Sequence record: PQ471516.1
Origin: Escherichia phage Turkey5
Reading direction: 5' to 3' (one strand)
DNA length: 64,000 nt
The notes under the pieces were generated by a model that was not told the DNA's origin, did no database searches, and saw only the letters and a list, made by a program, of their open reading frames with translations. Of this stretch, positions 35,673 to 38,620 are shown piece after piece (position 1 is the stretch's first letter; every line of letters starts with the position of its first letter). Position numbers and translations under genes: made by a program.

Positions 35673-35703
35673 GGTTGACTTCGGGCAACCTTTTTCGTAT
35701 TAT
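35673..35703 (+). terminator. stem-loop cassette (terminator hairpin with embedded -35, then TATTAT)
   Basis: GGTTGAC-ttcg-GGCAACC, T-run, TATTAT 17 nt after TTGACT; 5' leader identical to 37779 copy. Confidence 0.6.
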
Positions 35704-35740
35704 GTACTCATCGAAACGAAACATACTAAGGATTAAGAAA

Positions 35741-37324
35741 ATGCGTAAACAGACAAAATCAGACATAGAACAATTTTCTCGTAATTATTTAAAAAAACGC
35801 TTTGGTGTTGATTGTTTAATTGAAGTACTTATGAATGAACAAACCCCAAGTAAAAGTAAAATAGTATACCAACATCCCGAACGTTTCCTACCAGTGACAT
35901 GTTGGTATGTTCAAATAAAGCAACACTCAAAATTGAGTGCACCGCAATTAACACGCGAAGAAGTTATCGCCCAAACCGAATCATTATTTGACGATAGTGA
36001 AGGATTTAATATAATTTCGTATGATTTTACTGAGGAGTTGAGTCATACAATAATTACATACTCCCACCCAGAACGAATTAATCCACAGCATGTTGAATAT
36101 TACGTTCTGAAGCGTTTGGAAAGTGCGTCTTCACTCAATCCAAAATACAAGGATGGTGAAATTGAAGAGTTGAGTAAGCAGTATCTTTCCAATTTGGGAC
36201 ATGAATTTGTAAAAATTATAATTGATAATGGGACCGATTCTCTTATAGAATTTAAGGTTGAAAATCGCACACTCCCAGTAAGTATTATCTTTGGTGACCT
36301 TCGGCTACGTTCAAATGAAAGTCGTCCGGTACGCCAAGGATTTATAAGTGAAAATGAATGTGTACATAATGCAAAAAAAGTATTATCAGAACACAAAAAC
36401 ACTTTCATTAAGATTGATTATAATAAATCTGAAGTTAACCGTAGTATGATTCATTATAAATCTTCTAACAATATAATAAATGAAATAAGTTATCACACAT
36501 TAATGAATGAACCGTCATTTATTGAAAAAATAACTCTTGTTTCAATTAAAGAAACACTTGATGATGTATTCCATAATCTAGGAAACGGTTTCAAACTTGT
36601 ATCAGTAGGAGATTTACAGGGCGGCCAAACTGAAATTACATTCAGACACCCACAGCGTATATTACCATGCACTACAACTTTTTATAATTTGAAACATACA
36701 AATCCAAAAACTGGATTTAATCCAAAATTGACATTTGATGAAGTTACTGCAATGGGGGAAGACCACGCTCGTAAACACGGAACTAAGTTTTTGGGGATTG
36801 TTGGGAAGTTTAATGGTTATTCAACACGGCTTTCCTTCAAGTACCATGATAAAATAATTGAACAAACCTACCCAGCTATTTTAGCGGGCTACACTGGGTT
36901 TGGTGGTAGTGGTTATAAGCAACATGCTGATATTGCTCGTGTGTATGTGAATATGAATCATACCAAAGATGGTCTGAATGCCGGAAAAACGACACAAGAG
37001 TTCCATAAACGTTTATCCAAACGTAATAGTTCTTTCAAAAAAATATACAAAATTGAAAAATTCTGGGAAAATATTATGTTGATTGAATTCAAAACAACAG
37101 GTGGTGTGTATGGGGGTGAAATCGCCAGCGTATTGGAAACGTTAATCCATACCGAAGCAAAATGTGGCAACCGTAAAGATAGTGTGTATATGTATGATAA
37201 TGGAGATGGATATCGTGAAACATTCGAGGTCAACTATCTAGACCGTGTAGTTGATGTGATCAACGAATATAAAAAATCATATACACATAGCGTTAAAACC
37301 GACATTCTCGGTCTTCTTGAGTAA
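35741..37324 (+). CDS. hypothetical protein with internal repeats (527 aa)
   Basis: Track ORF trimmed to ATG after AAGGATTAAGAAA; repeated YQHPERFLP / YSHPERINP / FRHPQRILP. Confidence 0.65.
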   Translation: MRKQTKSDIEQFSRNYLKKRFGVDCLIEVLMNEQTPSKSKIVYQHPERFLPVTCWYVQIKQHSKLSAPQLTREEVIAQTESLFDDSEGFNIISYDFTEELSHTIITYSHPERINPQHVEYYVLKRLESASSLNPKYKDGEIEELSKQYLSNLGHEFVKIIIDNGTDSLIEFKVENRTLPVSIIFGDLRLRSNESRPVRQGFISENECVHNAKKVLSEHKNTFIKIDYNKSEVNRSMIHYKSSNNIINEISYHTLMNEPSFIEKITLVSIKETLDDVFHNLGNGFKLVSVGDLQGGQTEITFRHPQRILPCTTTFYNLKHTNPKTGFNPKLTFDEVTAMGEDHARKHGTKFLGIVGKFNGYSTRLSFKYHDKIIEQTYPAILAGYTGFGGSGYKQHADIARVYVNMNHTKDGLNAGKTTQEFHKRLSKRNSSFKKIYKIEKFWENIMLIEFKTTGGVYGGEIASVLETLIHTEAKCGNRKDSVYMYDNGDGYRETFEVNYLDRVVDVINEYKKSYTHSVKTDILGLLE

Positions 37325-37335
37325 AAAAAATAAAA

Positions 37336-37366
37336 GGTTGACTTCGGTCAGCCTTTTTGCTATTAT
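37336..37366 (+). terminator. stem-loop cassette (terminator hairpin with embedded -35, then TATTAT)
   Basis: GGTTGAC-ttcg-GTCAGCC; TATTAT 37361-37366. Confidence 0.6.
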
Positions 37367-37502
37367 ATTAGTACTACCAACGTGAAAGAGTTCGATAAAC
37401 ATCTGAAGAAGAATGGCTTCGATACGAACAACTTTGCTATCAGTAGTATTACTGAAATCATGATTCAATACAACATTATTGTATATACATTACGAGGGTA
37501 AA

Positions 37503-37769
37503 ATGAAACCAATCACAACAACACAGAGTACTAACCTAACGGTTTTACATGATGGTTTAAAAGGTACAGTACGTGATCTTCTGAACTTCATTGATGGTAT
37601 TCAAGGTGATACCGGATACTGCATTTATACTACTATCATTCCTGGTGGTACGGAACTGTACTTCACCAATATGGAAGTATCGGAATCGGGTGAAACTGAT
37701 GATTCATTCCAAGAAGCCATCCAACAATTTCAGGAATCCTTAGAGGATTTAGGTTTTACGGTACAATGA
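37503..37769 (+). CDS. hypothetical protein
   Basis: Trimmed to ATG after GAGGGTAAA. Confidence 0.5.
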   Translation: MKPITTTQSTNLTVLHDGLKGTVRDLLNFIDGIQGDTGYCIYTTIIPGGTELYFTNMEVSESGETDDSFQEAIQQFQESLEDLGFTVQ

Positions 37770-37778
37770 CGAAAAAAA

Positions 37779-37809
37779 GGTTGACTTCGGTCAGCCTTTT
37801 TCGTATTAT
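37779..37809 (+). terminator. stem-loop cassette (terminator hairpin with embedded -35, then TATTAT)
   Basis: GGTTGAC-ttcg-GTCAGCC; TATTAT 37804-37809; downstream leader duplicates 35690-35740. Confidence 0.6.
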
Positions 37810-37846
37810 GTACTCATCGAAACGAAACACACTAAGGATTAAGAAA

Positions 37847-38620
37847 ATGAACCGCACCGAGAAAGCAATGCAAATCGAAAAGAACTTCAACTCCATGATG
37901 GCTGCTCTTGAATGTCTTCTGGACACCCAAGCTAACTCAATCAACTCTCTGATTGTTTCTGGTAAAGGTGGTGTTGGTAAAACTTATAACGTTGACAAAC
38001 GTCTACAACAAGCAGATAACAACTACGAAATCGACTACAAAAAGATTTCTGGTAAAGTAACTACTATGGGTCTGTACGAAGCACTGTATCACTCTCGCCA
38101 CGCTGCTTCAGTACTGTTACTCGATGACGTTGATATCTTCGGTGACGAAACTAATATCGACCTCCTTAAAGCAGTACTGGATACTTCAGAGAAGCGGGTT
38201 GTATCTTATGCAACTTCTGGTAAGTACCTGGAGCAGCAGGGTATTCCTAAGCAGTTTGAATTCCGTGGGAAGGTAATCTTCCTGACGAACAAAAACCTGT
38301 CACAGATTGCTAAAGGTAAAAGCAGTTTAGCACCACACATTGATGCACTGATTACTCGTAGTATCTTTGTTGACCTGCAACTGTTCACCAACGAAGAAGT
38401 TATGATTCACATTGAGAACATCATGAACAAGACTAACATTCTTGAGAACAATGGTGTTAATAAAAATGGTTGCAAAGCAATCCTGAACTGGATGCTGAAC
38501 AACGAAGAAAACCTGCGTTCACCTTCACTGCGTATGCCGTGCCTGATTGCTGGTCTGTACAACAAATTCCCGTATGATTGGGAATCAATGGCAGAAAACA
38601 TGTTCCTGGAAAAGAACTAA
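37847..38620 (+). CDS. P-loop NTPase (AAA-like ATPase)
   Basis: Walker A SGKGGVGKT, Walker B VLLLDDVD, sensor-like IFLTN; track ORF trimmed to ATG after AAGGATTAAGAAA. Confidence 0.7.
   Translation: MNRTEKAMQIEKNFNSMMAALECLLDTQANSINSLIVSGKGGVGKTYNVDKRLQQADNNYEIDYKKISGKVTTMGLYEALYHSRHAASVLLLDDVDIFGDETNIDLLKAVLDTSEKRVVSYATSGKYLEQQGIPKQFEFRGKVIFLTNKNLSQIAKGKSSLAPHIDALITRSIFVDLQLFTNEEVMIHIENIMNKTNILENNGVNKNGCKAILNWMLNNEENLRSPSLRMPCLIAGLYNKFPYDWESMAENMFLEKN

Follow-up and report, generated by a model that had tools for sequence, protein, structure and literature searches.

The promoter-early stem-loop (PeSL) architecture has been described in T4-like phages (Arbiol et al. 2010, PMC2839356; Comeau et al. 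2014, PMC4122927), and the type found in KVP40/nt-1 has a stem-loop of the form A3-4G3-loop-C3T3-4 and the promoter TTGYVH-N17-TAWWAT (PMC4122927). A second described system is that of the T5orf172 homing endonucleases, of which CapR is the zinc-finger DNA-binding domain (Netter et al. 2021, PMC8096241; PMC10448857), and nuclease genes tend toward the boundaries of genetic exchange and shuffle their repeat domains (Barth et al. 2023, PMC10448857). Here, we describe a locus at 35,673–38,620 of a 64,000-nt stretch, hereafter the window, of Escherichia phage Turkey5 (PQ471516.1), in which two genes, denoted gene A (527 aa) and gene B (257 aa), are preceded by the same promoter-leader block. An earlier note on this DNA took the block as a sign that the two genes are co-regulated. 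We conclude that the locus probably consists of a mobile, cassette-flanked, homing-endonuclease-like gene A beside a resident AAA+ gene B, arranged by PeSL-type shuffling rather than as a co-evolved module.

The features on which this conclusion rests are as follows, all on the + strand.

35664–35703, +: cassette copy 1, with A-tract, hairpin (35669–35695), T-run, −35 element TTGACT (35675–35680) and −10 element TATTAT (35698–35703)
35704–35740, +: leader 1, with TCATCGAAACGA at 35708–35719 and the Shine-Dalgarno sequence AAGGA at 35728–35732, 8 nt from the ATG
35741–37324, +: gene A, a 527-aa homing-endonuclease-like protein
35759–36916, +: repeat array of gene A (residues 7–392), six units of about 65 aa without cysteine motifs, presumed to serve DNA recognition
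36926–37324, +: nuclease-like domain of gene A (residues ~396–527), divergent and T5orf172/GIY-YIG-like
37327–37366, +: cassette copy 2, with TTGACT-N17-TATTAT at 37338–37366, 90% identical to 35664–35703 and followed by a different leader; a putative dual element, terminator of gene A and promoter of the next unit
37770–37809, +: cassette copy 3, with hairpin (37774–37801), −35 element (37781–37786) and −10 element (37804–37809)
37810–37846, +: leader 2, near-identical to leader 1 with one T/C difference
37847–38620, +: gene B, a 257-aa stand-alone AAA+ ATPase (PHROG 1250), conserved at the locus in Asteriusviruses

A repeat search returned a direct repeat of 78 nt (35666–35743 and 37772–37849, 95% identical), which spans the A-tract, the hairpin, TTGACT-N17-TATTAT and the leader GTACTCATCGAAACGAAACA(T/C)ACTAAGGATTAAGAAA up to the ATG of each gene, so that the common upstream block of the earlier note is confirmed by alignment. 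The first 40 nt of the block are present a third time at 37327–37366, where they directly follow the gene A stop codon and have another leader. The hairpin, AAAAAGGTTGAC-TTCG-GTCAGCCTTTTT, has a UUCG loop and is flanked by an A-run and a T-run; TTGACT forms the 5′ arm of its stem, and TATTAT lies 17 nt further. The hairpin of copy 3 has 12 pairs, the UUCG loop and the T-run, and was classed as terminator-like by a terminator scan. Folding against shuffled sequences gave −17 to −18 kcal/mol for copies 2 and 3 (z about −2 to −2.7), whereas the hairpin of copy 1, 5′ of gene A, is weaker (−12.6 kcal/mol, z −0.7) because of a T>G change adjoining the loop. Both leaders are predicted to be unstructured, with minimum free energies of 0 to −0.9 kcal/mol and 192–200 of 200 shuffles folding at least as well; leader 1 is at the lower end of this range of structure (0 kcal/mol, 200 of 200 shuffles). 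A larger recent duplication that included genes was considered as the source of the repeat and ruled out, only the 78-nt block being common to both sites. The earlier note had named such a duplication, extending over unrelated genes, as the finding that would undo its proposal; the duplication as such was not found, but its essence was, in that unrelated genes carry the cassette.

The cassette is a family of many members. The hairpin core has nine matches in the window against none in 100 shuffles, and at least 10 cassette copies lie on the + strand from 17565 to 37779, where shuffles give an expectation of 0. TCATCGAAACGA also occurs in the window 3′ of the denV promoter, and there are just two copies of the full-length leader, with its ...AAAC(A/C)(T/C)ACTAAGGATTAAGAAAATG. 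In the related phage EJP2, the cassette with the leader start cgtattatgtactcatcgaaacgaa is found three times within 2.2 kb, 5′ of the AAA+ gene and of two small genes (78 and 43 aa). In WPEC3, CMSTMSU and ECO103/EC22.5-2, it is a different type of nuclease gene that the long leader precedes; the leader of the AAA+ gene is another one (...gctataatcatttcatcaact...) in JNE01, 121Q, WPEC3 and EC22.5-2. Co-regulation of genes A and B is thus unsupported as something specific to them, because the cassette family precedes many other units, at least 10 in the window as well as unrelated genes of EJP2. The common promoter-leader would instead place A, B and dozens of their neighbors in the same early temporal class. 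Sites of the sigma-70-like form TTGAC-N16-18-TAnnnT number 44 on the + strand of the window and two on the − strand, and the region of genes A and B is predicted to be of the early type.

Outside the Asteriusviruses, the cassette and the 16-nt predicted transcript start TCATCGAAACGAAACA align almost base for base with intergenic sequences of three other phage lineages, namely Klebsiella Slopekvirus (Matisse), Certrevirus (KaOmega) and Vibrio Straboviridae (QD01), in which the genes 3′ of the cassette are small and unrelated. The conserved hairpin/−10/TCATCGAAACGAAACA segments are located as follows.

35664–35745 and 37770–37851 of the window
2470–2560 of comparison sequence L010
2485–2580 of comparison sequence L011
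2490–2580 of comparison sequence L012

In total, 173 phage records match the conserved cassette and transcript start. No counterpart of the cassette was found in E. coli genomes, and no Rfam family within 34300–38700 of the window. Scanning IMG/VR for the exact pattern of hairpin and leader returned a single contig, the pattern being too strict to be informative.

We regard the cassette as PeSL-type, i.e., as a putative terminator hairpin overlapping a near-consensus sigma-70 early promoter. The likeness to the described PeSL elements, here one of structure and sequence only, includes a stem-loop terminator with a strong sigma-70-like early promoter and an AT-rich upstream region, a Shine-Dalgarno sequence and start codon at the 3′ end of the cassette, many intergenic copies across a plastic early region, and junctions of indels or replacements between related phages that fall inside cassettes in the maps against EJP2 and JNE01. 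The form of the stem in the window (A-run, G2-3 ... C2-3, T-run) further resembles that of the KVP40/nt-1 type. However, three differences are noted. The −35 hexamer sits within the 5′ arm of the hairpin in the window; the 16-nt TCATCGAAACGAAACA at the predicted transcript start is conserved here, even across phage lineages; and the genome that carries the cassette is that of an Asteriusvirus, a Rak2/121Q-like jumbo phage. For Rak2/121Q-like phages, no PeSL description was found in the searchable literature, in which papers report only RpoD-like early promoters.

The comparison with related genomes bears on the framing of gene A by cassettes. The relatives of the window, by megablast of positions 20000–44000, are the Asteriusvirus jumbo coliphages (121Q/PBECO4 group; Rak2/121Q-like), the closest being vB_EcoM_JNE01 with about 96% identity over 20000–34858. 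Homology to JNE01 ends at 34858, the end of denV, and restarts at 37835, within the Shine-Dalgarno sequence of gene B. Against EJP2, blastn matched 34901–35720 of the window to 1524–2352 (97.3%), the match ending within the leader, and 37327–37826 to 3692–4191 (98.8%), beginning at the next cassette; 35721–37326, i.e., gene A, has no EJP2 counterpart, gp480 and a 365-aa nuclease-like gene being found there. EJP2 4192–4429, which comprises gene 484 and one cassette, is missing from the window, and 37771–38622 of the window matches EJP2 4430–5278 at 90%. Gene A therefore stands in for EJP2 gp480 and gp481 exactly from cassette to cassette on the blastn map, and both differences from EJP2 have cassette junctions, because the match ends fall in cassettes. 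With its flanking 40-nt direct repeats, 90% identical, the exchange of the gene A unit appears to be the pattern that the PeSL model predicts.

Gene A is one of six different nuclease-like genes that occupy the slot between denV and the AAA+ gene across the genomes examined.

121Q: gp221, with three CapR units and the common C-terminal domain
Metagenomic 121Q-like contig: P0048, with HPER-type repeats and the common C-terminal domain
The window: gene A
JNE01: a 474-aa protein whose C-terminal domain matches PHROG 9084 'homing endonuclease' and PHROG 559
EJP2: a 365-aa protein
WPEC3: a 516-aa protein with six 'VCIIDPVYGEFWQTP' units, matching PHROG 681

Gene A is sporadic in its distribution and is replaced at a fixed site between conserved genes, and the slot matches the tendency reported for nuclease genes (PMC10448857). 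As a separate observation on this slot, P0048 (2165–3541 of L014) occupies the position of gp221 (121Q, 2601–4064 of L002) and has a gp221-like C-terminus, with HPER-type repeats replacing the CapR array, which looks as if the DNA-binding array had been exchanged in place.

The protein encoded by gene A is a near-orphan. A word-indexed homologue search returned only gene A itself, the identical 527-aa protein being also on one ENA contig of 356 kb. Of 1.84 billion representatives scanned exhaustively with HMMER, only five proved to be relatives, and these have the C-terminal ~130 aa in common. Gene A has no match in Pfam, NCBIfam, PADLOC or PDB sequences. Its C-terminal 143 aa, though, match positions 438–543 of PHROG 681 'endonuclease' (E 4e-5), and the Pfam-verified T5orf172 domain of another protein, P0053 (PF10544, E 2.5e-12), matches positions 426–531 of the same PHROG (E 1e-25). 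We read the C-terminus as probably T5orf172-like, the two matches falling on the same region. PHROG 681 is also matched by all relatives of gene A, two of which carry CapR homology domains (PF21817), namely the 121Q gp221-like protein (E 3e-23) and P0050 (E 9e-13). Domains of the T5orf172/GIY-YIG type follow the pattern Y...K-G-x-T...R...E..H...G-x-x-E-x-F. In the alignment of the six-member C-terminal family, Y402, G415, R424, N429, E466, H470 and E493 are invariant, and gene A contains the invariant pattern Y..G.T..R...E..H...E.F. These residues would fit the T5orf172/GIY-YIG pattern, with putative catalytic roles. The nuclease domain of gene A is the most divergent member, at 27–33% identity. 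Using the C-terminal family as a search profile brought in just two further proteins, of the zinc-finger/T5orf172 kind, which aligned via a flanking repeat rather than the nuclease domain, and the family profile gave only chance matches against PDB sequences.

Gene A had been described in the earlier note as having three internal repeats with an H-P-(E/Q)-R motif. The motif is indeed present at residues 45, 109 and 303, but the array comprises six units, and HP(E/Q)R lies after the second strand of units 1, 2 and 5. Each unit consists of a helix followed by two or three strands, and helix-strand-strand recurs in units 2, 3 and 6 of a low-confidence AlphaFold2 model. The repeats of gene A and P0048 aligned by hhalign with the five repeats of the syntenic 474-aa protein of JNE01 over 65 columns (92% probability, E 5e-7), and controls with reversed or column-shuffled profiles gave probabilities of at most 0.2%. 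The N-terminal part alone has no significant PHROG match (best E 0.023, phrog_27752, unknown function). Gene A lacks the CxxC...CxC zinc-ligand motif and has no Pfam CapR or DUF723 match; a reading of the HP(E/Q)R repeats as degenerate zinc fingers was dropped, there being no similarity to DUF723/CapR profiles. The repeats would thus be a cysteine-free module standing in place of the zinc-finger arrays of related nucleases and paired with different heads, and a role in DNA recognition is presumed from their position and by analogy.

The overall comparison with the T5orf172 homing endonucleases shows both likenesses and differences. As in those enzymes with CapR/DUF723 arrays (PMC8096241, PMC10448857), gene A has N-terminal repeats ('beads on a string') and a putative C-terminal nuclease head, the latter mapping to the T5orf172 part of PHROG 681; a close 121Q gp221-like relative has bona fide CapR domains; and the site of gene A is one where exchange between related phages has its boundary. 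In contrast, gene A has no Pfam T5orf172 match, and its repeats, which are without zinc ligands, are of the ~65-aa type common to the syntenic nuclease gene of JNE01, a gene with another C-terminal domain. We consider it likely that gene A carries a nuclease domain of the T5orf172 (GIY-YIG-type) kind, and homing-type cleavage would be its most likely activity.

Gene B is, with confidence, an AAA+ fold. The Walker A and B motifs reported for it earlier hold up: G42, G44, K45, D93 and D94 are invariant in an alignment of 32 family sequences, as are N148, R171 and R229, giving gene B Walker A, Walker B, the sensor-1 Asn and conserved arginines. Together with an alpha/beta core, a C-terminal helical lid and a length of ~250 aa, these make it resemble the stand-alone AAA+ ATPases, the nearest solved folds being MoxR/CbbQ, DnaA domain III, Cdc6/Orc1 and RuvB. 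It has 46 homologues, nearly all of about 255 aa. The best Pfam match, AAA_16, is below the gathering score (18.1 bits vs. a cut-off of 32.6), and neither sequence nor structure comparison assigns a clade, the structural neighbors spanning many clades. One distant homologue follows a replication/recombination cluster (DNA polymerase B, UvsX-like, DnaB-like helicase); our best guess, at low confidence, is a DNA-transaction ATPase. The orthologue in EJP2 (4506–5276 of L003) is named 'thioredoxin' in GenBank, which looks like an annotation error, the protein being an AAA+ ATPase.

The codons of gene B are host-like (CTG 19 of 28 Leu, ATA 0 of 19 Ile, GC content at third positions 0.46), whereas those of gene A are the opposite and poorly adapted (CTG 2 of 40 Leu, ATA 15 of 42 Ile, 0.26). 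Gene B is 88–99% identical in JNE01, WPEC3 and EJP2 and 55–59% identical in 121Q. Beside this, we observe that the AAA+ gene exists in two deeply divergent allelic types (55–59% aa identity; 37847–38620 of the window vs. 4488–5258 of L002) among Asteriusviruses whose flanking DNA is 85–95% identical, a split that could reflect allele replacement linked to the neighboring nuclease genes.

Between genes A and B, behind cassette copy 2 (37327–37366), lie two small open reading frames (ORFs) that the earlier note passed over.

37382–37501, +: 39-aa ORF with a GTG start, the positional equal of EJP2 gp482, ending 1 nt 5′ of the 88-aa ORF
37503–37769, +: 88-aa ORF, 98.9% identical to EJP2 gp483 and without a family match

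The 39-aa ORF occupies what would otherwise be a long 'leader' after cassette copy 2.

The explanation that we favor can be laid out as follows. In each cassette, the hairpin core (A-tract, GGTTGAC-UUCG-GUCAGCC, U-run) overlaps the promoter sequence TTGACT-N17-TATTAT, and a short, A-rich leader, predicted to be unstructured and with a good Shine-Dalgarno sequence, follows 3′ of this hairpin-promoter. As inferred from the sequence, each cassette would terminate the upstream transcript and start the next, making the early region a series of insulated single- or few-gene units. The cassettes may serve as recombination sites because they form direct repeats of 40–80 nt, between which units could be inserted, deleted or swapped. 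Gene A would be one such unit, free-standing and homing-endonuclease-like, in the hypervariable interval from denV to the AAA+ gene. By analogy, it would cleave related phage genomes that lack gene A, followed by gene conversion, i.e., homing or marker exclusion in mixed infections. Gene B would be a resident, well-expressed, stand-alone AAA+ ATPase, whose leader may have been acquired by cassette recombination in the lineage of EJP2 and the window rather than through functional pairing with gene A.

Several results weigh against this explanation and have to be set beside the rival ones. Gene A has no match to Pfam T5orf172 (PF10544), GIY-YIG, MUG113 or CapR, even at E ≤ 10; its repeats gave a probability of 0.4% in hhalign against 12 DUF723/CapR-type units; the C-terminal family gave a weak profile-profile match to three T5orf172-like sequences (P 0.002, probability 14%); and the AlphaFold2 model, from a 6-sequence alignment, has a pLDDT (predicted local distance difference test) of 37.6, too low to confirm the nuclease fold. 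The nuclease assignment is likely, not proven, because of this weak match and this model. The divergence of the nuclease domain, which is the greatest in its small family (27–33% identity; PHROG 681 E only 4e-5), would suit a gene A domesticated from a homing endonuclease into a sequence-specific DNA-binding regulator that, like CapR, does not cut, a fate documented for such DNA-binding arrays (PMC8096241). However, every family-invariant position is kept, among them the Y, R and E that a GIY-YIG-type site should have; the nuclease domain is retained in gene A but has been lost from domesticates of the CapR type; and the sporadic distribution and replacement pattern suit a mobile gene. We therefore regard a domesticated gene A as unlikely.

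The position of the gene also leaves room for a functional link, since in all Asteriusviruses examined a nuclease-like gene lies immediately 5′ of the AAA+ gene. Combined with a promoter and leader identical for both genes in this phage (block 95%), and with McrB among the structural neighbors of gene B, though as one of hundreds, this could point to a nuclease-plus-AAA+ system with McrBC-like logic, acting in takeover, anti-defence or phage exclusion, the shared promoter-leader matching the expression of its two parts. The earlier note had advanced the pair as a host-takeover or anti-defence module, a proposal that the comparison did not sustain. The nuclease partners vary, both in repeat arrays and in nuclease region (PHROG 681 vs. 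PHROG 9084), while the ATPase is constant at 88–99% identity; the leader of the ATPase differs in other phages; an independent cassette and two ORFs stand between the genes; distant homologues of gene B on other phage contigs have no nuclease neighbor; the codon usage of A and B is opposite; and PADLOC models match nothing relevant. Such a system is, in our judgment, improbable. Less probable still is a recent local duplication selected for equal expression of A and B, i.e., specific co-regulation. The full-length leader does occur only twice in the window, but EJP2, a phage without gene A, has the same full leader 5′ of its AAA+ gene, and WPEC3 and ECO103/EC22.5-2 have it 5′ of a different type of nuclease gene; its first part stands 5′ of unrelated small genes in EJP2 and of denV in the window. 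On balance, the evidence favors ordinary phage genome mosaicism rather than a dedicated two-gene module.

Two further readings, which we put forward as rather unlikely, are that the cassette does more than promote and terminate transcription, and that the repeats of gene A and of the JNE01 nuclease gene are a new, swapped DNA-recognition module. The transcript start AUCGAAACGAAACA... is nearly invariant before unrelated genes in Asteriusvirus, Slopekvirus, Certrevirus and Vibrio Straboviridae. It could represent an undescribed 5′-UTR (untranslated region) element, acting in translation, stability or capping, or else a cassette that moves between phage families. The cysteine-free repeats of ~65 aa, for their part, could be a DNA-recognition module swapped between nuclease heads at one fixed hot spot.

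Other observations were made in the window. A pair of similar small proteins, of 58 aa (33278–33454) and 60 aa (35476–35658), have the common form MKL.R..RN R.MDALY ... EYW..D.Y; the 60-aa protein matches PHROG 38182 (E 1e-18), and its gene terminates just 5′ of the cassette of gene A. Downstream of gene B, 38680–41447 holds eight tandem ORFs of ~100–125 aa each, which by eye are hydrophobic and have a W(Y/F)FK(R/K) motif in common behind the first hydrophobic segment; they have the look of small, paralogous membrane proteins in an array. A left-end cluster at 219–4443 contains six tRNA genes (Gly, two Ser, Asn, two Thr), and consensus-like promoters of the TTGACT-N17-ATAAAAT/TATAAT type lie at 350 and 1461, directly 5′ of both tRNA-Ser genes.

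Thus, a striking sequence duplication can be accounted for without a new system, and gene A and its cassette are, in our verdict, additions to known kinds, a homing-endonuclease-like module shuffled via regulatory cassettes. For annotation, we advise that gene A be named a putative homing endonuclease and gene B an AAA+ ATPase. The cassette-flanked units, with their strong and compact promoter-leader, could serve phage engineering, and the conservation of the leader across lineages is a modest curiosity that poses a small, testable question. For the biology of the group, the locus would carry the PeSL model of modular shuffling beyond T4-like phages, to the Asteriusvirus jumbo phages of 350 kb, with the interval from denV to the AAA+ gene as a hot spot for nuclease genes at which DNA-binding arrays and nuclease heads may be exchanged.

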